Below, one piece after another: positions 1-12,985 of a stretch of 12,985 nt of DNA. Position numbers and translations under genes: made by a program. Every line of letters starts with the position of its first letter. The stretch's first letter is position 1. The stretch is from a virus (Duplodnaviria; Heunggongvirae; Uroviricota; Caudoviricetes): the IMG/VR virus record IMGVR_UViG_2537561857_000027; one strand, given 5' to 3'. Under the pieces are notes generated by a model. It saw only the letters and a program-made list of their open reading frames with translations. It was not told the origin of the DNA and searched no databases.

Positions 1-393
1 TTATGCCGTCACTGAATCGCGCTCAACATACCGATCCATCTCCAGCCGAACATCCAGCATCATCAGCATTCCTTCAATAACACCTTCAGCTTTTTGCAGC
101 CGCTTTCCGATAGTCCCATCAGAGCATTCATGTTTTTGCGCCAGTGACATAAACGTCATCCCCCGCACGTAGTAATCAACCAGCAACTCATGCAGATCGC
201 GATTGTTCCGGTAAAGGCGGGCTATGCACCCGCATATCACCATCGCATCATCGTCACAGCACTGTGGGCGTGATGTTATCTTTGCCGGAATAATCCCCTT
301 AAATCCTGCGGCAACGGATGACCAGGTCACATTCTCGCGATTATTTGCCGCCCACGCTCCCCTGCGTTCCAGAACCTGCTGAATATCACGCAT
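1..393 (-). CDS. Phage antitermination protein Q-like (QuuD-like), about 130 aa
   Basis: ORF-track frame 1..399 with stop at 1-3. The track's first codon is TTG; the first ATG is at 393-391, preceded by GAGG 9 nt upstream. The product [18 protein letters not shown]...CCDDDAM...[18 protein letters not shown]...[15 protein letters not shown] matches, from memory, the DLP12 QuuD / Q antiterminator family. Identification is by recall, not search. Confidence 0.6.
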
Positions 394-461
394 CAACAAT
401 CGCCTCGTAATAGCTGTGGTTACATACCCGTAATTCGGAGATGCACTGGATGAAAGTTAAA

Positions 462-600: not shown

Positions 601-779
601 ATGGTTTTACGACTGGTGAATTTGAACAACTCAAATAATCGAGTAAATGAGCAATAAACATCAATGGGTTAGAGTAATACCACGCAGCAGTGTTTCTCAA
701 CGCCCACCACTGACGGAAGTTGAATAAACTGAGCAGGCCAAAGCTCAAAAATGAGCTTTGGAACAATATCAACAAGTTA

Positions 780-975
780 CCGCCGTAACCGCTCCGGTTT
801 CCCCCAATGGGGGATTTCGAAAGAATCAACGGCTTAGGCCTTAATCATCTGCGTAATCATAATGATTATTCAGCCAGCGCAATTTTGCGCTTTGCTTTAA
901 TCTCAATGAGTTACCACGCCGACTTCCTCAAATTGAGGATTGTGGAAGAATCAACGGGTTAAGCCTAAATCAAAG
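780..975. repeat. Two degenerate tandem units about 125 bp apart, each a short GC hairpin (CCCCCAATGGGGG 800-812; CCTCAAATTGAGG 925-937) followed by the box GAAGAATCAACGGNTTARGCCTNAATCA (818-846; 945-972)
   Basis: Direct comparison of the two units. Both boxes contain a perfect match to the IHF core consensus WATCAANNNNTTR (AATCAACGGCTTA 823-835; AATCAACGGGTTA 949-961). No convincing ORF on either strand. Confidence 0.45.
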
Positions 976-1413: not shown

Positions 1414-1550
1414 CGGTCCCCCTGTGAGTTGCGGTTATGCTCTGTAAAAACGTTCATTTTTGTAGGTTACTTTAAGTAACTTACAAAAAATCGATCATCA
1501 CGTATCGGTTTCGTTTTGCGCTTCCTGTTGCGTTTCGTTTTTGAGAAAAA

Positions 1551-1756
1551 TGCGCATTTTTTTGCGCACTTTTTGAGGTGGTCTATCCCCCTGCAAGCCG
1601 CGTCGTTACTGGCTTTGTGCTGGTGGTCAGCATAATCGATTTTGTGATCGGTTTTATGATCGAATTTGCGCAGTTTTCTGCGCACTTTTCGGGGAATTGT
1701 TGCCCTACGGAATGTGTGCATCAGGAGCGATATGTAACTGACTTTGTAACTGACTT
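1551..1756. promoter_or_regulatory. Operator-like repeat block: two pairs of the palindromic hexamer TGCGCA at 12-bp centre spacing (1551-1556/1563-1568 and 1667-1672/1679-1684), plus two directly adjacent 12-bp repeats TGTAACTGACTT (1733-1744, 1745-1756)
   Basis: Read directly from the sequence. The block sits in a 630-bp stretch (1414-2067) with no convincing ORF, between the restriction gene and the 57-aa gene. A regulatory function is inferred only. Confidence 0.35.
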
Positions 1757-2045: not shown

Positions 2046-2069
2046 AACCGGGTTTATCCCGGCTTTTTT
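2046..2069 (+). terminator. Candidate plus-strand intrinsic terminator (CCGGG-ttta-CCCGG, then c + TTTTTT)
   Basis: 5-bp GC stem followed by a T6 run on the plus strand only. Its T-run overlaps the stop codon of the convergent minus-strand restriction gene. It implies plus-strand transcription in 1414-2040. Confidence 0.4.
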
Positions 2070-3144
2070 AATGTTTGATGCATTTTTCCATGAAAGAATC
2101 TAAGAATTGATCGGTTATTCCTTGAGGCTTTCGGCGCTCACAAAGAGAATACAATTCTTCTACGGCAGAGTAAGGAAAAAATTTTGTGTCTAGCTCACGA
2201 AATTGTGGTCTATTTGCAAACTCAATTACTTTTTCTCTATATTCATCTGGAGCTACGATTGTCCATCGTATATCTTGCAGACGGGGAGCATAATCACAGA
2301 AGTTCTTCATACGTGCTAAACCCCTTATTATTCCGGTACTATGCTCGATCTCCATCACGGCAGGCATCAATTTACCATTTCTAAACCAGATGCAATCTAT
2401 CAATCTTGCGCCAGCAATGGCTTCGCTGTAGGAACTTAGGACTTTTTCATTAGACAGACTGTCAATGACACCATCCATTTGAGCGATTGCTTTACCATTG
2501 TATTTTAATCCTCGGTCATTAGCTGCAACCCATGTTCTGTATCCCAGATGATGACCGATTTTTACTAATGCTATCTGGATTTGTGCATGTCTTCTTGATT
2601 CTTCAATAGACATGCCTTCAATTGGACGGATTGTTTCTGAATCAACACTTTGGTATACAACTTCTGTGTTCATCTCTGATATTACAATATTAGTTTTGTA
2701 TTCAGAAAGCTTGCCGTTTTCATGTGGTAAATTCGGTAAGTATATAAGATGCTTGTGGCCTTTTTTAATCGTCTGTTTCGTATTAATAACCTCTAAGCGG
2801 TCGAGTTTACACCAATAAAATTGAGGTGTATGAGCAAGCAAACTTTCAATAACTGAACGAGAGTTATAGCTTGCACCGAATACTCTATCTAAATTGATAG
2901 GCGCATCCTCTTGAATTGCGTTAGCCAAACGCCATAGCATTTGGCTAGATATGCTATCAACTTTGGCATCTCTGAGCGTTTCACCTTTGGTTGGATTGAA
3001 ACGTTTAAAGCGTATTGGGCCTTCTGGTAACTTAATCGAGTCGATAACAATCTTCCCGGCATTACTTTCATTCACATAATCAAACTGCCTGTTTTTGGGT
3101 AGATTTGCTATCGCATTCACAAGATTCATTGCTGTTAAATTCAT
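2068..3144 (-). CDS. Putative Type II restriction endonuclease partner of the adjacent methyltransferase (358 aa); nuclease family not recognisable
   Basis: Long ORF directly downstream of, and overlapping by 65 nt, the C5-methyltransferase gene on the same strand. ATG at 3144 has GGGA 6 nt upstream. The C-terminal region has a possible PD-(D/E)xK-like arrangement (...ARLIDCIWF...PAVMEIEHS...), which is a weak call. The restriction function is inferred from operon context. Confidence 0.5.
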   Translation of the reverse strand: MNLTAMNLVNAIANLPKNRQFDYVNESNAGKIVIDSIKLPEGPIRFKRFNPTKGETLRDAKVDSISSQMLWRLANAIQEDAPINLDRVFGASYNSRSVIESLLAHTPQFYWCKLDRLEVINTKQTIKKGHKHLIYLPNLPHENGKLSEYKTNIVISEMNTEVVYQSVDSETIRPIEGMSIEESRRHAQIQIALVKIGHHLGYRTWVAANDRGLKYNGKAIAQMDGVIDSLSNEKVLSSYSEAIAGARLIDCIWFRNGKLMPAVMEIEHSTGIIRGLARMKNFCDYAPRLQDIRWTIVAPDEYREKVIEFANRPQFRELDTKFFPYSAVEELYSLCERRKPQGITDQFLDSFMEKCIKH

Positions 3145-4219
3145 CTTTTATCCCTAAATGCTCTAATATGGATTTTGCTATGCCTAAAGCCGCAAGGTAA
3201 GGAACACCATTGCCAACAGTTTTAAACATATTTGAAAGAGTCATGTAAGATGGCAATTCGAATTCTTTCGGTAAAGACTGAATGGCAAGTGCTTCTGCAA
3301 CTGTTATTCTACGTGGCTTATATGGATGCAAATGTACTTCATTATTACCGTAAGCAGCTGTTGGAGAATATCTCCAGCGATGAAGACGCTTGTAAGATTT
3401 TTTGCTATCGTCCCCTTCAGCTACAGCTTTAAAGCGAACTAACCCAGCCCTAGCAGTAAACACATGTTTTGCGTTCACATGTTCAGAAACTTTGTTTTTC
3501 CTAAACCAGTAGTCAACAGTTAACTCTTCAGGAAGTGACTCAGGCATTGCCAGTGTTGAGTTCTCAACAAATTCATTCGTAGTTGGCCAATTATGTTCAA
3601 AAGCACTACTATCTGGGTATAATCTTCCACTCCAGTTAAAGATCTTGGTTAGACTTTTATTTTGGAAACCCAACAGAATAATGCGTTCACGGTCTTGCGG
3701 GACTCCGTATTCAATCGAATTTATTAACCTTTCATGAAGGATGTAACCAACGTCCATTAACTGTTTTTTGAGATGCTCAAAAAACTCACGGTGTTTGAGC
3801 GTGCGATAAAGACCTTTGACGTTCTCGAACAAAAAGAAGTCAGGCTTCATCTCAACAATTATATTGATGTAACTTTGAGACAGCTTACCGTTCTCTCCAT
3901 CGCGACCTTTGTTCTTACCTGCAACGGAGAAATCAGGGCACGGTGGGCCACCGATGAAGCCAATTAGTCTTTTTTCTTTCTTGAGAGCTTTAATATTATC
4001 TTTCAACTTATTGTGATCAACTTCCTCGATGCTCTCTTCTGCATATCCAAAACGTGGGATAGGTTTGTTCATCACCGCTCGTGAGTGCTTGTAAGCATCC
4101 ATAAATGGTGGGTGAAATTCATTCACAAAAACCACCTCGTAGCCTGAGTTTTCGAAGCCAAGATCTAGAAAACCTGAGCCGGAAAAGAAAGAGAAGATGG
4201 CGGGTTTAAGTGTGGACAT
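3080..4219 (-). CDS. DNA (cytosine-5)-methyltransferase, Type II R-M modification subunit (379 aa)
   Basis: Canonical m5C-MTase motifs in the correct order: I FSGSGF (FxGxG), IV GGPPCPDFS (catalytic Pro-Cys), VI ENVKGL, VIII QDRERIILLGF, IX RRITVAEALAIQSLP, X GNGVPY. A variable region of about 130 aa lies between VIII and IX. Start ATG at 4219. Confidence 0.9.
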   Translation of the reverse strand: MSTLKPAIFSFFSGSGFLDLGFENSGYEVVFVNEFHPPFMDAYKHSRAVMNKPIPRFGYAEESIEEVDHNKLKDNIKALKKEKRLIGFIGGPPCPDFSVAGKNKGRDGENGKLSQSYINIIVEMKPDFFLFENVKGLYRTLKHREFFEHLKKQLMDVGYILHERLINSIEYGVPQDRERIILLGFQNKSLTKIFNWSGRLYPDSSAFEHNWPTTNEFVENSTLAMPESLPEELTVDYWFRKNKVSEHVNAKHVFTARAGLVRFKAVAEGDDSKKSYKRLHRWRYSPTAAYGNNEVHLHPYKPRRITVAEALAIQSLPKEFELPSYMTLSNMFKTVGNGVPYLAALGIAKSILEHLGIKDEFNSNESCECDSKSTQKQAV

Positions 4220-4367: not shown

Positions 4368-4430
4368 CTATGATGTGTTTAAGGTTGCTTGAATTACCTC
4401 TGTTGGTGAACGGTCGGTCTGCTGGTTCAT
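4368..4430 (-). pseudogene. Truncated duplicate (20 codons, MNQQTDRSPTEVIQATLNTS) of the 5' end of the 57-aa gene at 1240-1413
   Basis: Shares the 30-bp repeat and the peptide TDRSPTEVI with the full-length gene, then diverges to a stop at 4368-4370. Its ATG lies 13 nt after the ssb stop. Confidence 0.5.
4390..4419. repeat. 30-bp perfect direct repeat, copy 2; partner at 1382-1411
   Basis: Exact identity to 1382-1411. Confidence 0.9.
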
Positions 4431-4443
4431 GTTGTGCTGTCAT

Positions 4444-4893
4444 TCAGAACGGAATATCGTCAGAGAACGGGTCATCACCTCCCGCTGGTGGCTGATTTCC
4501 CTGCTGTCCGGTCTGTCGTTTTGCTCTTTCCAGTGCTTCAGTCGCCTTCCCCTGTTGCCCCCGCTTCCCGCCAGGGCGCACCGAACGGGCACTGATTACG
4601 CTGTCAGCGATAACCTGCCAGCCCTGCCGTGTTTCCCCGTTCTGTCCGGTCCACTGGCTGATCTGCATGTTACCCGCCACGCTGATAAGGTCGCCTTTTT
4701 CATGTCTCGCCAGCGCGTCGGCCTGCTTACCAAATGCCAGGACTGATAGCCATAACGTCGCCTGTCCGTCCTGTGCCTGACTGCATGGCAGTGATACCGC
4801 CATACGCGCCAGCGTCATCGGTGTGCCCTTGCTGGTCTGTTTTACCTGCGGGTCGTCCACCAGCCGCCCGTAAGCTGCAATCTGTGCTGTCAT
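4444..4893 (-). CDS. ssb: Single-stranded DNA-binding protein (SSB), 149 aa
   Basis: Gly/Gln/Pro-rich linker and the hallmark acidic C-terminal tail ...GGDDPFSDDIPF (E. coli SSB ends DDDIPF). AAGGAG lies 8 nt upstream of the ATG. Start overlaps the stop of the upstream gene (ATGA). Confidence 0.85.
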   Translation of the reverse strand: MTAQIAAYGRLVDDPQVKQTSKGTPMTLARMAVSLPCSQAQDGQATLWLSVLAFGKQADALARHEKGDLISVAGNMQISQWTGQNGETRQGWQVIADSVISARSVRPGGKRGQQGKATEALERAKRQTGQQGNQPPAGGDDPFSDDIPF

Positions 4894-5306
4894 GGTCTGC
4901 GCTCCTTGTTCCGGTACTCCTGGATAATCCCCATTGTCATATCGAATAAATCACATGCCGCTTTTTCTGCATCTTCCGCTTTCAGGTCATACAGCGTCAT
5001 GAAATGGTGAGCGATTGCCCGTGCGGATCTTTTGCTGTTTGCTGAATATTTCTCATAGATTTTTTCTGCCCGCTCTTCAATATCCCGCCGGAACTCTTCA
5101 CGTTCAAACAGGTCACGGTGTATCAACATCAGCGAATCATTCAGCCATGTCACATCGGCGTATACCGTTCGCTTCCAGACAATCAGGATCGGGATATGTT
5201 TTTCATCGCAGTGATGCAGATGTTCGTCAGGTATATAAAGCGTGGCTCTGCCTCGTACCGATACGAACCTCACAACAGATTCCGTTTCACTTGTTTTTTT
5301 GATCAT
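4890..5306 (-). CDS. Hypothetical protein, 138 aa, translationally coupled to ssb
   Basis: The track ORF 4890..5435 runs back into the origin iterons, giving an RRLRQLRQLRRLRR artefact. The internal ATG at 5306 has a strong SD (AAGGAG, 7-nt spacer), so the start is placed there. Confidence 0.6.
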   Translation of the reverse strand: MIKKTSETESVVRFVSVRGRATLYIPDEHLHHCDEKHIPILIVWKRTVYADVTWLNDSLMLIHRDLFEREEFRRDIEERAEKIYEKYSANSKRSARAIAHHFMTLYDLKAEDAEKAACDLFDMTMGIIQEYRNKERRP

Positions 5307-5367
5307 GAATCGTCTCCTTCCAGGCATCACATCATTCACACGCTTTATATATATAGGAAAAACGTGT

Positions 5368-5683
5368 CGCCTCAGTCGCCTCAGTTGCCTCAGTTGCCTC
5401 AAACGTCTTAACGTATTGATTTGATTAATAATCACAAAAAAATTGAGGCGACATCATGTCGATTTGAGGCAACAATAGGGGGTATTTGAGGCAACATCAC
5501 GTTGGTTCCGTTCAGACAAACAAAACCTGTCAGCCGTGTTGCCTCAAAATGGGCAGTTGTTGCCTCAAAATGGGTAATTGTTGCCTCAAAATGAGCAATT
5601 GTTGCCTCAGTAAAAACAGAAATAAAACATATAAATCAATCACATATATATATTTATTACTGTTTGAGGCAACTGAGGCAACA
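5368..5683. repeat. Iteron-type replication origin: at least 13 copies of the 9-mer GTTGCCTCA / TGAGGCAAC in both orientations, plus an AT-rich stretch (5611-5662)
   Basis: Four tandem 9-mers at 5368-5403; three inverted copies at 5444-5496; four copies at exact 21-bp spacing (5539, 5560, 5581, 5602); two inverted copies at 5666-5683. The array lies immediately downstream of the replication protein gene. Confidence 0.8.
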
Positions 5684-5707
5684 TTTTTTCATCTTATATA
5701 CGCGTAG

Positions 5708-7846
5708 TTAATCGCTTCCCTCCTCATCGTGATTAGCGAACAACATCCCGTAGGCCCATAATTGCGCTCCATTAAGGTTCTTAAGGCGTGGGGTCTTGAT
5801 TTTCCATCCTCTCCCGCTCTCTGGTCGTTTCAGCATTCCAGCTTCGTGGAGTATTTTTGCAACGGTATCCTTGTTGAAGCCTTCCGCTACTTTCGATTTA
5901 AACGGCTCCGATAATACGTAAAACAACAATGGTTCATCGTAACGGCTTCCCGAATCCCTGTAGCCGTACAGCTCAGAAATCGGCAGGCTGGCTGGGTCAT
6001 AATCAACGGGCGCAAAACGGCTCATGCCGTAGGCAGCAAGAAACGCCTCTGCCTGCTCAATGATCTGTTTGTGTTCCTTGTTGCCCGTGCCAAATTCTTT
6101 TACCCAGGCATTAAATACATACTGAATTGCATCGCGGCATTCCTGCACGGACCAGCCAGTTACATGACCGGAAAGCACAAGCGCGGCCTCCAGTATGGAG
6201 AAACGTTCACCCACGCGGTGGACCTGCTCACCGTAATTGTCTGGAATGATATTTCGCCAGCGTGCACGGCTCTCTCTAACCGCGTCCTTAGCTTCCTGCT
6301 GGTTCTCCGCAAGCCATTTAATCCACTCACGCCCCGCTGCGCCGTGGTTTTCTTGCCATGCCGCCTTCAATGCGTCAGCGTGATCCTTTCCGTTGCTGTA
6401 TTCGTGTAACTGCGTGGCTTTTTGAATCGGGATATTGAGCAGGCGCACAAGTTGCCCGACCTTAACTTTTATCCCCGACGTTTTGAGGTATGTTTCGATA
6501 TCCACCTCTCCGGTGCTGATAGCAACGGTCCGCCAGTTTTTCAGCTCTCTGTTGCCGCCGTCCTTTGCCCCCTGTAATTTTCCGAATCCATTGAACAAAG
6601 TGTATGAGGATACGTACACGTCACGGGGGCTTCCTGCCTGCCCTATCTCGTCCAGTGGAAGGAGTCCGTGATTGTGTGCTTCTGCTTCGTTAGCTATCCC
6701 CAGCGCCGTTCCGTACCAGGTTAATCGCAGCGCCTCAGGATCGCCCCACAAGCTCGACGCGATGCTCTGCGTTGTGGTCTTGCCTGCTGTGGATTGCTCG
6801 AAAAAATGCACGCCAAAACCATCAGCGCCTGTCAGCCCGACTAATGGCGCGGATAATGACGTCGCTATACCCAGCATCATGAACGGATTGCCACCAGCCA
6901 GCCGCGCCACGCTGTCGCGCCAGCTTTCCGCCGTTCCTGCCACGGAATAACCGTTAATCGCGGCACTTTTTCCGGTAAACAAAACGGGCTTGTCAGATTC
7001 GCCGATAACCGTACCGTCCGGCATGATGTACGCGCCAAAATGCCAGCCAGCCTTCGGGCTTAAGTGCCATTCCTCATGCTGTCCGCCTAACTGCATCCAG
7101 TCAGCCAGGGGGATCCTGTGTTTTCCGTTTGTCGTGACTTTAAGCCCGTTGGCTTTCAGTAATCGCCAGCCGTCAGTGTCGCCTATTCCGCAGCAAGGCA
7201 CAGCCATAGTGACAAGCCGATTTGTTGTCGAATCTGTCCAGCGCATCACGCGGTAATGCTCGTTACCAATGACACCTGAACCGAGTAATTCAACGGAAGA
7301 ACACAGCCATTCGAACGGACGGATAATTTCGCCAGATTGCTTATCAACCTTTGGCGTCACCCAGTAAACGCCATCAGGACGGCATTCAACGCGGGGTTTT
7401 AATTCGTCATCATAATTTCCGGTGAAATTTGTCTTTGCCGGAAGATTGATCACCAGGCAGTTGCCGCGTTCCGCATCATCCTTCAGTCCAGCCATGCGCG
7501 GTGTCCAGTCCTCCGGCTGCTGGTCAACAAAGCCGCTGTAGCAGCGTGCCTCCTTTACACCCGCCACCGCAAGCAGTGTTGCTATCTGTAAAAGTGCTGT
7601 CTCTGATATTTCACCAGCACGATAAACGCGCACGTAATTGCGCCCTTTATCGATGATTTTCGTGTCTTCCAGGCTCGCCAGTTGTTTCGGTCCAAGAATA
7701 ACGGGCGGTGTATCATCTGCTGCAATATGCTTTCCGGCCCATTCGCTCCACTCTTTCGCATGTGCCCAGGCATCACTACCCGCAAAGATAATGACTTCGG
7801 TCATTTTGTCTTTCGGCTGTTTTTTTAAATTCGGTGCGCTTTTCAT
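5708..7846 (-). CDS. Satellite replication initiator, primase/helicase-like (pri-rep), 712 aa
   Basis: Large ORF adjacent to the iteron array. N-terminal region (MTEVIIFAGSDAWAHAKEW...) resembles Toprim/primase-type domains; the central region has a P-loop-like GKT segment (EQSTAGKTTTQS). The domain call is from pattern memory only. Start ATG overlaps the stop of the upstream gene (ATGA). Confidence 0.75.
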   Translation of the reverse strand: MKSAPNLKKQPKDKMTEVIIFAGSDAWAHAKEWSEWAGKHIAADDTPPVILGPKQLASLEDTKIIDKGRNYVRVYRAGEISETALLQIATLLAVAGVKEARCYSGFVDQQPEDWTPRMAGLKDDAERGNCLVINLPAKTNFTGNYDDELKPRVECRPDGVYWVTPKVDKQSGEIIRPFEWLCSSVELLGSGVIGNEHYRVMRWTDSTTNRLVTMAVPCCGIGDTDGWRLLKANGLKVTTNGKHRIPLADWMQLGGQHEEWHLSPKAGWHFGAYIMPDGTVIGESDKPVLFTGKSAAINGYSVAGTAESWRDSVARLAGGNPFMMLGIATSLSAPLVGLTGADGFGVHFFEQSTAGKTTTQSIASSLWGDPEALRLTWYGTALGIANEAEAHNHGLLPLDEIGQAGSPRDVYVSSYTLFNGFGKLQGAKDGGNRELKNWRTVAISTGEVDIETYLKTSGIKVKVGQLVRLLNIPIQKATQLHEYSNGKDHADALKAAWQENHGAAGREWIKWLAENQQEAKDAVRESRARWRNIIPDNYGEQVHRVGERFSILEAALVLSGHVTGWSVQECRDAIQYVFNAWVKEFGTGNKEHKQIIEQAEAFLAAYGMSRFAPVDYDPASLPISELYGYRDSGSRYDEPLLFYVLSEPFKSKVAEGFNKDTVAKILHEAGMLKRPESGRGWKIKTPRLKNLNGAQLWAYGMLFANHDEEGSD

Positions 7847-8142
7847 TTCTTGCCCCTGAATGCGTTAATCATGTTTTTCATCTTTCGGATGTTCGCCTCT
7901 GCTTTTGCGTTGCTGGCTGGCTTACCGCGCGGCACGGACTGCACCAGAGAAAAATCACGCGCGAACTGATACAGTGGCATTACGCAGTCATAGTCATAGC
8001 CTTCACGGCGGTAGGCGATACGGCGTTCTCTCACGCTGATAATTGTCACGATGCCGCCGTACTTATCGCGGTAAATATCCCCGCGCATAAATTCAGGTTG
8101 AGCTTTGCCACTGGCAGTTAAGCCAGAATTTTTTGATGTCAT
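7843..8142 (-). CDS. Hypothetical protein, 99 aa, translationally coupled to pri-rep
   Basis: ATG at 8142 with GGAGA 8 nt upstream; stop overlaps the pri-rep start. Confidence 0.6.
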   Translation of the reverse strand: MTSKNSGLTASGKAQPEFMRGDIYRDKYGGIVTIISVRERRIAYRREGYDYDCVMPLYQFARDFSLVQSVPRGKPASNAKAEANIRKMKNMINAFRGKK

Positions 8143-8198
8143 TGAGTTAATCTCCTGAAGGAGTTGTCTTAATCTTTATTTCCCGTTTATTTTTGCCG

Positions 8199-8390
8199 TT
8201 ATTGTTCGCCGCGTTTTTCTTCCTCCGTCATTAACCACACCGCCACATTGCTGGAAAGCTGTTTGATAAGTCCCGCAATAACAGAAAGGTCATGGTCGTC
8301 TATTTCTTCGTGGTTGCGTTCAATCATGCGGCTGATTACTTCGACCTGTTGCGCTTTCAGTGAGGCTTCTGCCAGTGTCATTTCCTGCAT
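8199..8390 (-). CDS. Hypothetical protein, 63 aa
   Basis: ATG overlaps the stop of the upstream 61-aa ORF (TAATG); G-rich SD-like stretch upstream. Confidence 0.5.
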   Translation of the reverse strand: MQEMTLAEASLKAQQVEVISRMIERNHEEIDDHDLSVIAGLIKQLSSNVAVWLMTEEEKRGEQ

Positions 8391-8575
8391 TACTGCACCC
8401 CCTTAATTTCATGAACGGCGTGGATAATTACGCCGGATAAACCGGCTTTAGCTGATTTGTTAATTACTGTGCTGATTGCAGCCTGGACGTTTTCGGCCTT
8501 CACGTTCTGCGTGATGCCAACGGTATAGCCGCGTGCATTAACGGCACGGGAAAAAACACGGAAGGTTTTAAGCAT
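8390..8575 (-). CDS. Hypothetical protein, 61 aa
   Basis: Strong SD: GGAGG with 6-nt spacer before the ATG at 8575. Confidence 0.55.
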   Translation of the reverse strand: MLKTFRVFSRAVNARGYTVGITQNVKAENVQAAISTVINKSAKAGLSGVIIHAVHEIKGVQ

Positions 8576-8738
8576 GAGTCACCTCCTGACGGATACGGGC
8601 GACAAAAATCAGATGTGCGTGCGGCAGCTGCGCGCGTGCTTCGCGCTCAGTGGCAGCGGTAACGGTGAATATTGCAATGCTACCTGTCAGGCACTGCATA
8701 AAGCGCCAGACAAAGTAAGGGCGTGCGGATACAGCCAT
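8568..8738 (-). CDS. Hypothetical small protein, 56 aa, with a hydrophobic core (LTGSIAIFTVTAAT); proposed real 3' part of the 504-aa track ORF
   Basis: Internal ATG at 8738 is preceded by GAGGAG with an 8-nt spacer, and codon usage improves from here to the stop. Its end overlaps the start of the next gene by 8 nt. Start assignment is by inference. Confidence 0.35.
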   Translation of the reverse strand: MAVSARPYFVWRFMQCLTGSIAIFTVTAATEREARAQLPHAHLIFVARIRQEVTHA

Positions 8739-8903
8739 GTGAAAGGCTCCTCTGACTTTGGGATTATACCCACCGCCGGAGGTGGTAAGCTCGCTGGCGG
8801 TGGACTGTACAGGGTTACCACAACTGGCGTTAGAGGAAACCAGCCCGACCGAAGTCGGCCCCATACAGCCCACCATTGTTGAGGTGTGCGTGTGCGCCGA
8901 TAC

Positions 8904-8924
8904 AAAAAAAGACGCTGGCGCGTC
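8904..8924 (-). terminator. Minus-strand intrinsic terminator (GACGC-tggc-GCGTC followed by T7 on the minus transcript)
   Basis: Plus-strand A7 at 8904-8910 precedes the hairpin at 8911-8924; an outer CGATACA/TGTATCG stem (8897-8903 with 8926-8932) encloses it. Confidence 0.5.
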
Positions 8925-9207
8925 GTGTATCGCCTCTAACTCCAGCGGGGTGGTAATCCCGATCCCCGTTTTATAAGGGATAGCCTCAGTATATGCCGCT
9001 TTTTTGCTTAAGTGGTCGGATGTGTTGCGAGAGAAGTTTGTGCGAAAAATACCTGCGTTTTCTTTGAAAGCACATAATAACATCACGTTATTTATGTTTA
9101 TGCAGTGTGTCGCAAAGCGACCTGAATCATCACGCAAATTACAACCATAAAAAATACCTGCGCTGTGATATGAGGTACTACAGCGCACCGCTTTACGGGT
9201 ACAGACA

Positions 9208-9387
9208 ATGACAAATGAAGAACTACAGGAAATCGCATTATCCATACTTGAGCGACAGCGCGAAAAAGTACGCCTGGAACGCGAGTCTTTGCTTAATCCC
9301 TCTCCTCTCACCAGACCAAAACGATTTGCGCTTGAGGCATTTCTGGACAAATACCCACGGCGATTAATCTCGCCTAAAAACCGATAG
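9208..9387 (+). CDS. Small basic/helical protein A, 59 aa (MTNEELQEIALSILERQREKVRLERESLLNPSPLTRPKRFALEAFLDKYPRRLISPKNR)
   Basis: Hand translation; below the track cut-off. Shares a C-terminal motif K(R/K)FALE(A/E)FL(D/R)KYPRRL...KNR with ORF B, and a similar 45-nt upstream region. Composition is protein-like. The coding strand is not proven (see findings). Confidence 0.4.
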   Translation: MTNEELQEIALSILERQREKVRLERESLLNPSPLTRPKRFALEAFLDKYPRRLISPKNR

Positions 9388-9483
9388 CGATCCGCTTTTG
9401 CTTCTCTGACTCCATAAAACGAATAACAACCATCAGCGCCGTGGTGTGAGGTGCTGCGTCGCTCCGCTGTACAGGAAATAAGT

Positions 9484-9762
9484 ATGGATTTACCACCAGA
9501 AGATGAGAAATTTTTACGACAACTACAACACCAACTACTCATGGATGCCATTGTCGAGCAGCAAACAGGGAGCAGCCCCATTGATTCATCGCTGAATAAA
9601 AAGGCCGCTTCCCGTTTTATTGAAAACAGGATAAGACGAGGAAAAACATGTGACGACGAGTCAAAGGCATCGCATACAAGAGATAAAAAATTTGCACTTG
9701 AAGAGTTTCTCAGGAAATACCCACGGCGGCTAAAAGCAACCAAAAATCGCCCGCCAGGCTGA
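9484..9762 (+). CDS. Small protein B, 92 aa, paralogue of protein A
   Basis: The track ORF 9451..9762 begins at GTG; the ATG at 9484 has AGGAA 6 nt upstream. C-terminal motif shared with protein A. Confidence 0.45.
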   Translation: MDLPPEDEKFLRQLQHQLLMDAIVEQQTGSSPIDSSLNKKAASRFIENRIRRGKTCDDESKASHTRDKKFALEEFLRKYPRRLKATKNRPPG

Positions 9763-9765
9763 TAG

Positions 9766-10076
9766 CATTGTCCACCAGCCTCAGATATGGCATTGTGGAT
9801 AATGCGCTTGATTTCCTTTATCTCCACTGGCGACCCTTTCGTGGTCGCCTTTGTTTTGCCTGCCATTCCTGCATCATGCGGATATTCGCGCCGTACAGGG
9901 CCACCAGCGCGATAATTTGATAAAGCCTCCTTCTGATAATGCTTAACGTGTTTCATGCGCTCAGCGGCGAAATGGCTCACGATATGGCGCATGTAATCAG
10001 CATGGTTGATGCTCACCTGTGCGAACTTATCCGCAGTATCGATGTACAGGGCGGCAGCGTTGCGGATGTCAGGCAT
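9766..10076 (-). CDS. Hypothetical protein (MPDIRNAAALYIDTADKFAQVSINHADYMRHIVSHFAAERMKHVKHYQKEAL...); start well supported, 3' end unresolved
   Basis: ATG at 10076 with GGAG about 9 nt upstream; it overlaps the stop of the upstream 51-aa gene by 8 nt (ATGCCTGA). The first 50 or so codons use E. coli-preferred codons (ATC, CTG, CGC, AAC, TTC). The frame has no stop until 8568. The lower coordinate given here is arbitrary. Confidence 0.3.
9829..9858 (+). terminator. Plus-strand intrinsic terminator (GGCGACC-ctttcgt-GGTCGCC followed by TTTGTTTTG)
   Basis: Perfect 7-bp GC-rich stem followed by a T-rich tract, about 70 bp downstream of ORF B. Confidence 0.6.
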
Positions 10077-10224
10077 GTTCACGTTCTCCCAGGCGACGGA
10101 CCAGCCAGCGTTGGGCTAATTCGGTGAGACGTTCTTTACGTTCTGGCGTTGGCATATCCATATCCAGTAGCGCACAGTTACGGCTTTCCAGATACGCGAG
10201 CAACGCCAGTTGATCAGCGGTCAT
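10069..10224 (-). CDS. Hypothetical small protein, 51 aa (MTADQLALLAYLESRNCALLDMDMPTPERKERLTELAQRWLVRRLGEREHA)
   Basis: Internal ATG at 10224 overlaps the stop of the Rha-family gene (ATGA); the track's longer 81-aa version would overlap that gene. Confidence 0.45.
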   Translation of the reverse strand: MTADQLALLAYLESRNCALLDMDMPTPERKERLTELAQRWLVRRLGEREHA

Positions 10225-10859
10225 ATGGTCACGAACTTTTTTTGATGGGATGCCGTTTTTTTGGCCCATACAGGCGGGTGCATCCCTAATACAAGGCGCG
10301 CAATGAAAGTACATTCGTTGTTATAAGCATGACCGTGTTGAGTATCTCCAGTGCGCTCAATGTATCCCTTCATGGCATCCCCCATAGAGCGCATCTCAGC
10401 TTTGGCCTCACATCTCTCTGCTATCCAGTTAGCCATGCGGTTAAACTGCGCAATGTATGCCTCTTTGAATGCAGCCGCTTTTTTTCCGGTAAATCCCATT
10501 GTTAAAAACACGAAGCCGTCTTTGGTGACTTCGTAGGCTTTCAATACGCGCCCCTTATGCTCAAATTTTACCCGCCGAAAATTGCGGGTTAAAAATTCAG
10601 CAGAACAACACAGGTTTTCAATCCGGTTAACAACCTTATCGTGATCCTTTCTGAAAAATCGGGCGATAGCCTGTGAAGTGGTTACAGGCTCACCGCCAGA
10701 AGGAAACACTTCCGGCGCGGTGAGTGCATTTTTATTTATTCCGTCAGCAATAATCTCATTGCCGGAAATTACCGGAATAATTGCGGCGAAATACTGTTGG
10801 CTCAGTTCTTCGGGCTGAACGAAGCCCTGCCCCTGTACGAGCATATTCGGACGTTTCAT
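10221..10859 (-). CDS. Phage regulatory protein, Rha family (212 aa)
   Basis: Residues about 57-140 (TTSQAIARFFRKDHDKVVNRIENL...RVLKAYEVTKDGFVFLTMGFTGKKAAAFKEAYIAQFNRM) match the Rha-domain signature as I remember it. AGGAG lies 7 nt upstream of the ATG at 10859. Confidence 0.75.
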   Translation of the reverse strand: MKRPNMLVQGQGFVQPEELSQQYFAAIIPVISGNEIIADGINKNALTAPEVFPSGGEPVTTSQAIARFFRKDHDKVVNRIENLCCSAEFLTRNFRRVKFEHKGRVLKAYEVTKDGFVFLTMGFTGKKAAAFKEAYIAQFNRMANWIAERCEAKAEMRSMGDAMKGYIERTGDTQHGHAYNNECTFIARLVLGMHPPVWAKKTASHQKKFVTI

Positions 10860-10924: not shown

Positions 10925-11128
10925 TTACGCGGCGTTGTTGCGAGAAGCATCAATACGCTGGTTAATCCATTCGTCGACTTCACTTTCAATAAAAGCCACG
11001 GAGCGGGGACCAATTTTTACCGGTTTAGGGAAACGCCCCAGGCTGATCAGGCGATAAATCCATGCGCGACCATAACCAGTACGGCGCATAACTTCAGAAA
11101 GACGGATGAATGAATTGTTATTAGCCAT
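10925..11128 (-). CDS. alpA: AlpA-family transcriptional regulator / excisionase-like protein (67 aa)
   Basis: MANNNSFIRLSEVMRRTGYGRAWIYRLISLGRFPKPVKIGPRSVAFIESEVDEWI matches the AlpA/Vis-type helix-turn-helix signature. AAGGAG upstream. Position just downstream of the integrase is typical for P4/PICI satellites. Confidence 0.85.
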   Translation of the reverse strand: MANNNSFIRLSEVMRRTGYGRAWIYRLISLGRFPKPVKIGPRSVAFIESEVDEWINQRIDASRNNAA

Positions 11129-11770: not shown

Positions 11771-12985
11771 TTATGCACATACACCAAACTTGCCGTGCAC
11801 CACGTTACCGCCCTGTTCCAGTGAGTCCATATAGTCGGCGTACCACTGGAGCATCTCCCGCCGTCCGTCCAGATATTGCGCGTGATTGTATGTGCCACGG
11901 ATCGAGTTTTTATCGACGTGCGCCAGCTGCGTTTCTATCCATGCGGAGTTATACCCCTGCTCGTGCAAAATCGTACTCATGGTGTGCCGGAACCCATGAC
12001 CAGTAACACGCCCTGCATAACCAATACGACGAATAAGCACGTTCATCGCCATTTCACTCATCGGTTTACTGTGCTGTATTCGACCAGGGAAAATAAACGG
12101 ATACTGCCCCGTCATGTGTTTCAGTTGTTCCAGAATAGCAATCGCCTGTTCTGAAAGCGGCACGCAATGAGGACGGCGCATTTTCATTCGTTCTTTCGGC
12201 ACTTCCCACAGACGATTATCAAAATCAATCTCCTGCCACTCTGCCTGCCGTAATTCACCAGGGCGGAGTCCTGTAAGAATCAACAATCGCATACCCAGCT
12301 TGACGATCTGGCTTCCGGTGTACGTATTAAAAACGCGGAAAAACTCCGGTAGCTCATCAACTTTCAGATACGCGTAATGCTCTTTCTTGTGTGGTGCAAA
12401 TGCGCTTGCCAGATCAGGAGCGGGGTTATATTCAGCGCGTCCGGTAATTATTGCGTACCGGAACACTTCGCCACATCGCTGGCGAACCTTACGCAATTTT
12501 TCAGTTGCGCCACGGTCATTAAGACGGGATAGAACCGCGAGCAATTCCATCGGCTTAATCTCTGCGATGGGCCTACCTCCAATGTACGGAAAAACGTCTT
12601 TTTCAAACGTCTCTATCATTTCCTCTGCATATGAGGGAGACCATCGGTCCAGGCGTTTTTCATACCACTCACGGGCGATCGCCTCAAAGGTGTTACCGCA
12701 TTTGTTCGCCTGTTCTCGCTTTTGGGCCTTTCTGACCTCACTCGGATTAACTCCACCAGCGATAAGCCTTTTGGCCTCATCCCTTGCCGTCCTGGCATCA
12801 GAAAGGGACACCTCAGGATAAACACCCAGCGACAACATTTTGGGCTTGCCTGCAAACCTGTATCGCAATCGCCAGCCCTTCGAACCGTTCGGCTCAATGA
12901 GTAACGAAAGCCCGTTGCCGTCATTGAGTGTATAGGCTTTCTCTTTTGGCTTCGCGCGGCGGATAGCAAGGTCTGAAAGCAACAT
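11771..12985 (-). CDS. int: P4-type tyrosine integrase (404 aa), complete
   Basis: N-terminus MLLSDLAIRRAKPKEKAYTLNDGNGLSLLIEPNGSKGWRLRYRFAGKPKMLSLGVYPEVSLSDAR is the conserved P4-integrase N-terminal domain; C-terminus has the catalytic region (HGFRHT ... RGTYNHAQY). ATG is at 12985-12983, the window edge, so the attachment site lies beyond the window. Confidence 0.95.
   Translation of the reverse strand: MLLSDLAIRRAKPKEKAYTLNDGNGLSLLIEPNGSKGWRLRYRFAGKPKMLSLGVYPEVSLSDARTARDEAKRLIAGGVNPSEVRKAQKREQANKCGNTFEAIAREWYEKRLDRWSPSYAEEMIETFEKDVFPYIGGRPIAEIKPMELLAVLSRLNDRGATEKLRKVRQRCGEVFRYAIITGRAEYNPAPDLASAFAPHKKEHYAYLKVDELPEFFRVFNTYTGSQIVKLGMRLLILTGLRPGELRQAEWQEIDFDNRLWEVPKERMKMRRPHCVPLSEQAIAILEQLKHMTGQYPFIFPGRIQHSKPMSEMAMNVLIRRIGYAGRVTGHGFRHTMSTILHEQGYNSAWIETQLAHVDKNSIRGTYNHAQYLDGRREMLQWYADYMDSLEQGGNVVHGKFGVCA

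Follow-up and report, generated by a model that had tools for sequence, protein, structure and literature searches.

A putative two-module iteron replication origin downstream of rep in a Gram-negative PICI of E. coli

The intergenic region 5307-5707 of the window (the whole stretch of 12,985 nucleotides analysed here) is very probably, judging from sequence comparison, the Rep-dependent replication origin of a Gram-negative phage-inducible chromosomal island (PICI) of E. coli. A sequence-only reading had proposed an iteron origin with an adjacent replication protein, and this proposal is strongly supported by the position of the repeats 3' of rep, the homology of Rep, the synteny with EcCICFT073, and the conserved layout with its co-varying 9-mer among relatives. 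Origins of this type have already been described for PICIs, and the basic finding leaves the knowledge of PICI origins unchanged.

Repeat arrays between rep and orf138

An exact search of both strands (12,985 bases) returned 13 copies of GTYGCCTCA, all of them inside 5366-5682, a span of just 317 bp. Only 0.19 copies were expected; none of 200 dinucleotide-preserving shuffles reached 13 and the largest shuffle value was 2. The previous count of at least 13 copies of a 9-mer in both orientations was thus upheld. The iterons formed four arrays, A to D, with two AT-rich spacers between arrays (Table 1). We interpret the sequence as an origin of two modules: M1 would consist of array D, the AT-rich stretch and array C, and M2 of array B, its spacer and array A together with the T-tract and (TA)5 run. 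Array D, whose 9-mer reads TGAGGCAAC on the + strand, begins 25 nt past the rep stop, and the iteron cluster fills the whole gap between rep and orf138. Arrays D and C bracket the AT-rich stretch 5610-5664, which holds the lowest-GC 50-nt window 3' of the rep stop (GC 0.14). Arrays A and B bracket the other one (5402-5443), and array B is inverted relative to array C. In the TRF analysis array C had a period of 21, 3.5 copies and 92% matches; its sites are two helical turns apart and would therefore lie on one face of the DNA. The four copies at exact 21-bp spacing and the AT-rich stretch that had been noted from the sequence correspond to array C and to 5610-5664, to which the second AT-rich stretch can be added. 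The first tandem array, previously placed at 5368-5403, was real, but its coordinates were 2 bp off. It lies 60-95 nt from the orf138 ATG, in line with the 60-100 bp upstream of the small-protein/ssb operon estimated before. An exact IHF consensus, WATCAANNNNTTR, is found at 5409-5421 on the minus strand, inside the M2 spacer.

Table 1. Positions of the genes and repeat elements in the window
Feature	Position	Strand	Description
ssb	4444-4893	-	149-aa SSB; Pfam SSB E 4.8e-16, phrog_44
orf138	4890-5306	-	138 aa; ATG 5306-5304, RBS AAGGAGA; first gene beyond the origin
T-tract (minus-strand reading) + (TA)5	5344-5362		directly flanks array A; (TA)5 at 5346-5355
Array A	5366, 5375, 5384, 5393 (5366-5401)	+	4 tandem 9-mers, 9-bp step; M2 outer arm
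M2 AT-rich spacer	5402-5443		42 bp, GC 0.21
Array B	5444, 5465, 5487 (5444-5495)	-	3 iterons, 21 and 22 bp apart; M2 inner arm
M1-M2 linker	5496-5537		42 bp, not AT-rich
Array C	5538, 5559, 5580, 5601 (5538-5609)	+	4 iterons, three steps of exactly 21 bp; M1 inner arm
M1 AT-rich spacer	5610-5664		55 bp, GC 0.16, contains (TA)5 run; proposed DNA-unwinding element
Array D	5665, 5674 (5665-5682)	-	2 tandem 9-mers, 9-bp step; M1 outer arm
rep	5708-7846	-	712-aa DUF927 helicase-initiator
alpA	10925-11128	-	island gene
int	11771-12985	-	integrase

Island context

The genes around the repeats are all encoded on the minus strand, which places the repeat region 3' of the helicase gene and 5' of orf138-ssb. 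The island order is int-alpA-Rha-C4 RNA-DUF4222-rep-(repeats)-orf138-ssb. We defined the PICI context as int, alpA and rep in one unidirectional block of about 10-20 kb without a full phage structural gene set; here int, alpA and rep are all on the minus strand, and the order is syntenic with EcCICFT073. Near-identical islands were about 14 kb long and were bounded by tRNA-Gly and a GH15 gene. The island site is tRNA-Gly(ccc), between actS and the GH15 gene, and it is not among the sites in Table S1 of PMC6092414. In the att core search, no direct repeat of at least 12 nt joined the tRNA-Gly side to the far end of the near-identical island L016. The element is chromosomal: megablast with positions 4400-8200 of the window gave zero matches in the phage collection and only partial matches, to ssb and DUF4222, among plasmids. 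The island also carries a P4-like immunity RNA of the C4 family, and its defence cargo includes a type II restriction-modification pair.

The start of ssb overlaps the end of orf138. No family match was obtained for orf138 in Pfam, PHROGs or NCBIfam. It was perfectly linked to the GTYGCCTCA iteron class, being seen only in loci carrying that class, and from this distribution it may possibly be a co-factor at the origin. Relatives with the same array layout and without any orf138 homologue exist.

The Rep protein

Rep matched Pfam DUF927 (E 3.8e-42), PDB 8tch_A, a 'Pathogenicity island protein' (E 1.2e-13), and PDB 5dgk, which is Cch (E 3.3e-4 by sequence; top match in Foldseek, E 4e-9). The match to NCBIfam Cch1 (E 3e-10) was under the equivalog cut-off. 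By these matches Rep is a relative of both the SaPI Rep and the Cch protein of SCCmec. Rep homologues were widespread, with 1,834 found at E <= 1e-10 across Enterobacteriaceae. The protein comprises an N-terminal PICI-type domain of 146 aa, a DUF927/P-loop ATPase core and a C-terminal module of ~110 aa. The label 'pri-rep' used for it previously could not be kept: in the window Rep, Pfam matched DUF927 alone and neither a Toprim nor a zinc-ribbon primase domain, both of which are carried by longer relatives. The alignment with SaPI Rep ended at Rep residue 605, leaving the C-terminal ~107 residues unaligned. The AlphaFold model had a mean pLDDT of 60.8, with residues 586-712 below 50, and the alignment was too shallow (all rows at least 59% identical). 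The fold search added only the Cch similarity, and the C-terminus of the model was unusable. The C-terminal ~70-110 residues probably form a helix-turn-helix with a beta-hairpin wing; this winged-helix assignment is a candidate and not an established one.

Conserved layout and changing 9-mer among relatives

We compared about 20 related loci, in which the array layout was read from the rep stop codon; L013 (a Sodalis MAG) was left out as its rep frame was broken. The layout began with 2-3 tandem copies at +23 to +44 past the stop (the position of array D), an AT-rich spacer and 3-4 copies phased at 21 bp at +87 to +171 (the position of array C). Further 3' it continued with inverted and phased copies at +179 to +270 and tandem copies at +276 to +355. 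It was kept by most relatives, in E. coli, E. albertii, Citrobacter, Klebsiella, Symbiopectobacterium and one Pseudomonas assembly, with L004 as an exception that has a looser arrangement of its own. Seven loci were scanned for the lowest-GC 50-nt window, and in six it lay at +39 to +47 past the stop; the one exception was again L004, which carries a different iteron family. Copy number in array A ranged from 3 to 5 among islands with identical or near-identical Rep, and the M2 spacer measured 40-45 bp across relatives. The exact IHF 13-mer was present in the M2 spacers of the window, L008 and the distal copy (see below). In L009 the ATCAA-N4-TTR core was kept and the first base missed; the site was partial in L010 and L012, and none was seen in L011. 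The T-tract/(TA)5 beside array A was kept by all alleles, and the distal M2 copies all had it too.

The 9-mer itself differed by allele: TGAGGCAAC, TGGGACRAS, TAACCCGCA, TGAACCAAC, TGGTACAAC, TGAAACYAC and GGTGGATA. The motif scan of related islands suggested with the earlier reading therefore gave a layout conserved in most of the ~20 loci and a 9-mer that co-varies with Rep. The 9-mer followed the last ~70 residues of Rep and not its N-terminal or middle parts. Across 13 alleles including mosaics it tracked Rep residues 641-700, a region that adjoins the origin and in which the model is of low confidence. The Rep proteins of L024 and L021 were identical in the N-domain (100%), close in the middle part (90%) and divergent at the C-terminus (28% identity), and their iterons differ. 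Conversely, L025 and L011 shared 14% identity in the N-domain and 86% at the C-terminus, and their iteron is identical. The Rep proteins of L010 and L012 are 98.6% identical, with 13 differences that mostly fall within the ~55 C-terminal residues; the rep-proximal iterons of these two loci are different. Two close classes, TGAGGCAAC and TGGGACAAC, were accompanied by W-K-I-K and W-Q-I-R, respectively, in the putative wing. At least seven iteron classes were found, each paired with one C-terminal Rep class. From these natural mosaics we infer that iteron recognition may be narrowed to about 70 residues. The Rep C-terminus is encoded beside the origin, so it could have been inherited together with the iteron because recombination tracts link the two, and not because one recognises the other.

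The M2 module and its distal copy

M1 was found in every relative, whereas M2 was optional. M2 adjoins M1 in the window, lies 2.3 kb off in E. albertii L008 and is absent in L024 and L026. In the latter two (L024 has the same iteron and a Rep 92% identical) the promoter-proximal half of the repeats was missing and the next gene started a few bases past array C. Near-identical islands have a second copy of M2 at a distance of ~5.7 kb, a position just outside the window. It was located at +6004 to +6117 past the rep stop in L016, L017, L019 and L020, and was also present in L001 and L002. In near-identical islands the distal copy keeps the cognate iteron. It was absent in L005-L007, L015 and L018, which have the same or near-identical Rep, and the distal copy of L004, with a non-cognate iteron, looks like a recombination relic. 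No conserved ORF was found 3' of the distal copies. L012 also has an extra cluster with M1-type spacing; it lies 10.9 kb upstream of the rep stop and has no rep remnant alongside.

Two alternatives were considered for the role of M2. In the first one, which we regard as possible and no more, M2 would assist replication in cis as crr does in P4, or would control copy number by handcuffing: Rep on M2 would contact Rep on M1, and the distal M2 copy, by pairing or looping, and so stimulate or limit initiation. The modularity of M2 and the second copies described above speak for it, as do the two-site arrangement bound by one protein in P4 and the exact IHF consensus inside the M2 spacer. However, some islands lack the distal copy despite the same or near-identical Rep, and the copy in L004 is non-cognate.

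The second alternative, which we regard as rather unlikely, is that M2 (5344-5495) is mainly a Rep-responsive promoter/operator: Rep at array A would activate or repress orf138-ssb, array A would take the -35 position relative to (TA)5, and orf138-ssb would be coupled to the Rep level. Array A ends 3 nt short of the T-tract with (TA)5 beyond, and this is conserved in every allele. The orientation of M2 is constant relative to the direction of transcription, an RBS and start codon follow ~25-45 nt past the TA run wherever M2 adjoins M1, and in E. albertii the cassette occurs separated from M1. However, no sigma-70-like promoter was found on either strand of 5200-5800, nor was there a -35-like hexamer, and an alternating TA run is unable to give both -11A and -7T of a -10 hexamer. 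The distal M2 copies have no conserved ORF behind them. Moreover, L024 and L026 lack M2 and have a gene right past array C, indicating that read-through from rep can suffice for downstream expression. For these reasons the overlap of the origin with the promoter region of the downstream operon, as had been suggested, was not supported; Rep on array A may possibly regulate orf138-ssb. The scan of 5200-5800 also gave one weak terminator-like hairpin (5461-5449), which was not above chance and was not kept in the L002 and L003 copies.

Our own proposal for M2 is equally tentative: a universal core, M1, would be joined by a portable Rep-binding cassette, M2, acting as a tunable cis element, either a crr-like enhancer/handcuffing site or a Rep-activated start site. 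The cassette would comprise three phased iterons, the ~42-bp spacer and its IHF-like site, a tandem array prone to slippage, and the T-tract/(TA)5; islands would carry it beside the core, kilobases off, as a second copy close to the island end, or would do without it.

Discussion

On the reading of 5307-5707 as an origin, the following course of events can be proposed. After induction, the unidirectional island operon would make the 712-aa Rep, a member of the family of self-loading hexameric helicases SaPI Rep/Cch, and its C-terminal ~70-110 residues would recognise the 9-bp iteron GTYGCCTCA. In M1 the 55-bp AT-rich element is bracketed by the opposed arrays D, with two adjoining sites, and C, whose four sites share one face; Rep assemblies on either side would melt this element, self-load and unwind the DNA. 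The island's own SSB, encoded just downstream, may then coat the single strands. As Rep has no recognisable primase domain, priming would take some other route. M2 (array B, the 42-bp spacer with the IHF-like site, array A and the T-tract/(TA)5) would be an optional accessory Rep-binding cassette. In this scheme the attachment of Rep to the iterons, the opening of the duplex, helicase loading and a possible part of IHF are inferred; the sequence analysis itself shows the repeats and their statistics, the conserved layout, the iteron's co-variation with the C-terminus of Rep, the homologies and the synteny.

The nearest known system is EcCICFT073, in which a rep-ori segment was shown to support Rep-dependent autonomous replication (Fillol-Salom et al., 2018, ISME J, PMC6092414). 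The two islands share the order int-alpA-Icd-like/C4 RNA-DUF4222-rep-ori-small ORF-SSB; SSB is followed by PerC both in EcCICFT073 and in islands related to that of the window. In both, the origin is directly 3' of rep, with iterons in both orientations around an AT-rich stretch; the outer inverted tandem 9-bp pairs and the rep-proximal position of that stretch are shared too. Rep shares 42% identity with the Pri-Rep of EcCICFT073 over its first ~140 residues. Past the N-domain the proteins differ: the window helicase is DUF927/Cch-like, whereas those of CFT073, RM13514 and IHE3034 are annotated as 'DNA primase family protein'. The iterons differ as well (GTYGCCTCA in the window, GGTAGAYA in CFT073 and TGTTCACC in RM13514), and the window origin has four arrays, two modules and strict 21-bp phasing unlike that of EcCICFT073. 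A literature search for the 9-mer and TGTTCACC returned only unrelated primer matches, and the supplements of PMC6092414 do not contain the iteron sequences of its Fig. 2a.

SaPIs and Cch elements have homologous Rep proteins (8tch, 5dgk), and their origin is likewise directly downstream of rep. According to PMC9371898, SaPI iterons are situated just downstream of rep and flank an AT-rich region on both sides in opposite directions, as in the window. The same paper gives 6-12 copies of 5-6 bp and one AT-rich spacer for SaPIs, compared with 13 copies of 9 bp and two spacers here. It further states, citing Ubeda et al. (2007, 2012), that SaPI Reps bind iterons via a C-terminal winged helix; in SaPIs a C-terminal domain has been shown to determine specificity, and a similar role of the window Rep C-terminus is suggested by co-variation. 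This part does not align with SaPI Rep. The window island also differs from SaPIs in its Gram-negative host and unidirectional operon.

P4 has two cis sites apart from each other, and a single initiator-helicase binds the short repeats of both. Its crr is directly 3' of the alpha gene, with modules that combine two tandem 9-bp copies with a T-rich spacer and inverted repeats. The C4-family immunity RNA and the distal partial repeat copy of near-identical islands are further points of likeness. However, Rep had no detectable similarity to alpha (BLASTP E 1.8), and the P4 type 1 repeat TGTTCACC was not enriched, its single match (0.35 expected) lying outside the origin. A P4-type system of alpha and TGTTCACC was therefore rejected. 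The genes sid, psu and delta are absent from the window. Flensburg and Calendar reportedly found in 1987 that both P4 sites are required, while the second site is optional in window-type islands.

Iteron plasmids such as P1, F, pSC101, R6K and RK2 have direct repeats bound by the replicon's own initiator. They use extra iteron clusters for copy control, and binding of the initiator overlaps a promoter. The helical phasing of the iterons is similar in the window. However, the initiators of these plasmids are winged-helix proteins without helicase activity that need DnaA and DnaB/DnaC, whereas the window initiator is a P-loop helicase homologue and its iterons are downstream and not upstream of rep. 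DnaA boxes were not enriched either (32 matches against 29 expected, none of them exact within 5307-5707). The classical type (RepA/pi/TrfA) was rejected because of the helicase-homologue initiator and the lack of an exact DnaA box in 5307-5707. GATC clustering showed no enrichment in the origin.

It is very improbable that the repeats are a binding array with a function other than that of an origin, for example in partition (as a centromere), in packaging (cos/pac) or as the operator of an unrelated regulator. Short repeat arrays in two orientations do occur at plasmid centromeres and some terminase-binding sites, and orf138, which has no known function, is linked to this iteron class. However, no partition or terminase gene was seen among the window ORFs and no lambda-type cosN within the window, same-layout relatives exist without orf138 homologues, the layout is anchored to the rep stop with a 9-mer that tracks the Rep C-terminus, and the corresponding part of EcCICFT073 works as an origin (PMC6092414). 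A coding repeat, for which a + strand ORF of 73 aa (5486-5707, peptide repeat CCLKMG) covers arrays C and D, can be given almost no credence, as can chance in view of the shuffles: a 21-bp period is 7 codons long and would be expected to produce such an ORF incidentally, copies are present in both orientations with those of array A in tandem at 9 bp, and the coding reading is refuted by the comparative data, in which copy number varies at identical or near-identical Rep and the same layout is filled by unrelated 9-mers in other alleles.

As the origin of a PICI, the region and its cognate Rep module offer a usable specificity map for a large family. Such a map can help to predict incompatibility or cross-replication of co-resident PICIs, to annotate islands with defence cargo and to design minimal PICI replicons. 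In the PICI literature examined we found no description of a portable element like M2. If our tentative proposal is true, M2 would set the copy number of the island, or would couple replication to the expression of downstream or integration-site-adjacent genes. The M2 cassette and its distal copy may thus be a lead on copy-number control in phage satellites.

Results

A pattern search located 13 copies of the 9-mer GTYGCCTCA in the 12,985 bases of the window, all of them within 5366-5682, against 0.19 copies expected by shuffling (0 of 200 shuffles reached 13). The repeat cluster noticed in the sequence-only reading is thus real and far from random; its exact 21-bp phasing (array C) and its AT-rich stretch (between C and D) were also borne out, and its description was accurate apart from a register that was off by 2 bp. 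The copies fell into four arrays between rep and orf138, the 138-aa ORF that precedes ssb (see the table). The C-D spacer was 55 bp long with a GC of 0.16 and the A-B spacer 42 bp with a GC of 0.21, and no AT-richness was seen in the B-C linker (5496-5537). The outer arrays A and D were mutually inverted, 5384-5404 and 5662-5682 being 100% complementary over 21 nt. Because of these orientations, spacers and inverted outer arrays, the region is best read as two back-to-back modules of one grammar: M1 (D, AT spacer, C) on the side of rep, and M2 (B, AT spacer, A and a T-tract/(TA)5) on the side of the next gene.

All convincing genes of the window were found on the minus strand. The Rha regulator was split, and it is probably a pseudogene; its counterpart in the related locus L001 was annotated as frameshifted. 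The C4 RNA sits within a 504-aa ORF of odd composition (8568-10082, minus strand), whose RefSeq relatives were annotated as 'host cell division inhibitor Icd-like protein'. This ORF is probably spurious, and the region appears to be a P4-type RNA immunity region. The cargo at 2068-4219 (minus strand) resembles a type II restriction-modification pair, and the L016 equivalent of its 358-aa ORF had a precomputed Pfam match to NmeDI_C. The IHF consensus was matched five times in the whole window (0.72 expected), with exact matches at 767, 824 and 949 in the region 767-970 (plus strand). This trio and a direct repeat of about 23 nt, GAATCAACGGSTTARGCCTWAATCA (823-845 and 948-970), occupied the non-coding DNA that separates the Q gene from the next ORFs. 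Short tandem 12-mers in 1551-1756 (TGCGCACTTTTT twice at 1551-1574 with a near-copy at 1667-1690, 2.8 copies of ATCGATTTTATG, and TGTAACTGACTT twice) surround a lysine-/arginine-rich 84-aa ORF (1467-1721, minus strand).

Features of the window island and its repeat arrays
Feature	Position	Strand	Remarks
P4-type integrase	11771-12985	-	
AlpA	10925-11128	-	
Rha regulator, split	10069-10859	-	two overlapping ORFs (212 aa and 81 aa), both matching phrog_2657
C4-family antisense RNA	8793-8880	-	Rfam RF01695, 77.7 bits (gathering score 45)
Two small PHROG families		-	listed between C4 RNA and DUF4222
DUF4222	7843-8142	-	
DUF927 protein (Rep)	5708-7846	-	712 aa
Array D	5665, 5674	-	two contiguous copies
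Array C	5538, 5559, 5580, 5601	+	four copies, spacing exactly 21 bp
Array B	5444, 5465, 5487	-	three copies, spacing 21 and 22 bp
Array A	5366-5401	+	four contiguous 9-mers
orf138	4890-5306	-	138 aa, no family match
SSB	4444-4893	-	
Cytosine-5 methyltransferase	3080-4219	-	379 aa, TIGR00675, E 1e-47
358-aa ORF	2068-3144	-	65-nt overlap with methyltransferase gene
Q-type antiterminator	1-399	-	

DUF927 was the sole Pfam match of the 712-aa Rep. In sequence searches residues 221-605 matched PDB 8tch_A, a 'Pathogenicity island protein' (E 1.2e-13), and Rep also matched the SCCmec helicase Cch (5dgk). The AlphaFold model was mediocre overall (mean pLDDT 60.8) with residues 1-130 and 150-290 well modelled, and its only significant PDB fold matches were two chains of 5dgk (E 4e-9). 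By this helicase homology, Rep is placed with SaPI Rep and the Cch-type initiators. Residues 1-146 (window 7409-7846, minus strand) formed a confidently modelled alpha/beta fold with no Pfam match, which was 42% identical to the N-terminus of Pri-Rep from EcCICFT073, an experimentally tested E. coli phage-inducible chromosomal island (PICI), while the remainders were unrelated. This similarity qualifies the earlier label 'pri-rep', as does the domain content: in place of residues 1-146, longer relatives have a zinc-ribbon primase and/or Toprim domain before DUF927 (both in L009, Toprim only in L011), which Pfam did not show in Rep.

Of 5,426 complete E. coli genomes, no more than 13 contained the region; the identical Rep protein, however, was listed in 694 assembly-index blocks, and the Rep family comprised at least 1,834 homologues. 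About 20 loci were compared: E. coli loci sharing the window's Rep (L001, L002, L005-7, L015-20), allelic variants found via protein matches (L021-27) and loci from other species (L008-12). The motif scan that had been proposed as a check found the same array layout in most of them. Counted from the rep stop codon, it consisted of two to three contiguous 9-mers at +23..44, a spacer of 53-66 bp, three to four copies phased at 21 bp (to about +171), two to three inverted copies spaced by 21-23 bp, a spacer of 40-45 bp and three to five contiguous copies. The rep-proximal spacer was AT-rich in all loci (GC 0.15-0.31) and contained the lowest-GC 50-nt window in all except L004, which has its own iteron family in a looser arrangement. 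Islands with the same or almost the same Rep varied in their tandem arrays (three to five copies in A, two to three in D), and the phased arrays were steadier, a fifth array C copy occurring in L002 only.

The iteron itself differed between loci: TGAGGCAAC in the window and L024, TGGGACRAS in L008, L023 and L027, TAACCCGCA in L021, L022 and L026, TGAACCAAC in L011 and L025, TGGTACAAC in L009, TGAAACYAC in L012 and GGTGGATA in L004. Such a constant layout with joint change of all motif copies is the signature of a putative binding-site array co-evolving with its protein. Rep alleles were mosaics of three exchangeable parts, which we treated as natural domain swaps. L024 and L021 were 100% identical in residues 1-146, 90% in 147-600 and 28% in 641-700. 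For L008 and L026, identity was 95% across the middle part and fell to 33% at the C-terminus. The iterons differed in both pairs. L025 and L011 had the same iteron, with an identity of 14% across the N-domain and 86% across the C-terminus. The window class was 73-78% identical to the nearest class at the Rep C-terminus and its iteron differed only in three central bases (TG-AGG-CAAC versus TG-GGA-CAAC), and the Rep differences included W681-K-I-K versus W-Q-I-R, a site predicted by the model as a hairpin after two short helices. In L010 and L012 Rep was 98.6% identical, with most of the 13 differences in the last ~55 residues, and the rep-proximal arrays carried TGAAACCCAT in one and TGAAACYAC in the other. 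The Rep C-terminus is encoded beside the origin, therefore one recombination tract would carry both, which qualifies this co-variation. The gene orf138 was present only with the window's iteron class; since relatives sharing the array layout have no homologue of it, Rep is the common factor.

M1 was found in every locus compared. M2 was missing in L024 (same iteron as the window, Rep 92% identical) and L026, in which the next gene starts a few bases past array C. In the E. albertii locus L008, ssb directly followed M1 and a complete M2 lay 2.3 kb further on. This M2 comprised three copies in phase, an AT spacer that includes an exact IHF consensus, a tandem array of three and TTTTGTATATATATA. 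A second M2 copy was present in L001, L002 and in L016, L017, L019 and L020, the latter four almost identical to the window. This distal copy (arrays B and A, spacer and T-tract/(TA)5; L016 18143-18264, L001 2276-2397, L002 2370-2490) was homologous to window 5327-5505 and lay at +6004..6117 after the rep stop, past the Q gene near the island end and about 5.7 kb from the origin, a place some 300-410 bases beyond window position 1 and hence outside the window. It was absent from L005-7, L015 and L018 despite the same or nearly identical Rep. Just downstream of it, a 15-bp perfect palindrome was observed (L016 18305-18319, with a matching place in L002/L003), reading TGGTGATAATCACCA in one lineage and TGGTCATGATGACCA in another; as it is intact in both versions, the dyad was kept via paired changes. 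L004 carried a distal GTYGCCTCA cluster (19213-19333), while its own iterons lie at 12489-12766 and its own Rep is 44% identical. By its motif this cluster is a non-cognate orphan, indicating that the rep-ori cassette was swapped. Downstream of the unrelated rep-ori module of the published PICI EcCIRM13514 (L028), at ~8375-8545, a 3' remnant of orf138 that encodes ...SARAIAHHFMTLYDLKAEDAEKAACDLFDMTMGIIQEYRNKERRP was also seen, which suggests that such cassettes may be exchanged with a breakpoint inside orf138. In L012, an extra cluster of cognate iterons (~718-838; three tandem and two phased copies, M1-type spacing) lay 10.9 kb upstream of the rep stop without a neighbouring rep remnant.

Discussion

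The window island shares the published organisation of Gram-negative PICIs, with int, alpA and pri-rep running in one direction and an origin placed after rep (PMC6092414; PMC10111431). EcCICFT073 has the same gene order: int, alpA, Icd-like, DUF4222, a primase-family protein, a 288-bp gap, a small ORF, SSB and PerC. Its gap contains GGTAGAYA repeats. Two tandem 9-bp copies stand beside the rep stop, there is an AT-rich stretch, and the far edge carries a tandem pair in inverted orientation. The gap fragment was experimentally shown to be a Rep-dependent origin (PMC6092414). SaPI Reps are self-loading hexameric helicases whose C-terminal winged helix binds iterons, which lie just downstream of rep and flank an AT-rich region in opposite orientations (PMC9371898). 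The Gram-negative PICI origin is the closest match to the window repeats, which agree with it in the features that can be compared at sequence level, and the region is very probably the island's replication origin, as the sequence-only reading had proposed.

That reading also held that the repeats overlap a promoter and could regulate the downstream operon. Array A does precede the orf138 start codon by 60-95 nt, and a T-tract and (TA)4-5 follow it directly in every allele. However, no sigma-70-like promoter was detected on either strand of the repeat region, and alternating TA makes a poor -10 element. Where M2 is missing, orf138 or ssb can evidently be transcribed together with rep. The T-tract and TA run might just as well serve the origin by unwinding or bending; an imperfect mirror copy of this element flanks array D (5665-5700). 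For these reasons we consider the regulatory role rather unlikely.

Like the window island, P4 has its iteron modules immediately downstream of the helicase gene: crr is placed 46 nt beyond alpha in the P4 record and combines a tandem 9-bp pair with a T-rich spacer and inverted repeats. Some islands of the window type also have a second distant site. The P4 system was rejected for the window island, as Rep showed no detectable similarity to alpha and the origin lacks the P4 repeat. The EcCIRM13514 origin (L028 8055-8300) was built from TGTTCACC, an 8-mer also found within stretches of the P4 record annotated as ori type 1 repeats (L030 4291-4590, crr), suggesting that this PICI Pri-Rep allele and P4 alpha may share a DNA-binding module. 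A classical iteron-plasmid origin was rejected because the initiator is a helicase and the origin gave no DnaA-box signal.

The origin, very probably that of the island, is a new allele of an already described kind. Neither the island's att site at tRNA-Gly(ccc) nor its DUF927 Rep class was among the checked examples of the 2018 paper (PMC6092414). What is new would be limited to M2 as a modular cassette, the second copy of it at the distal site and the putative mapping of iteron specificity to the Rep C-terminus.
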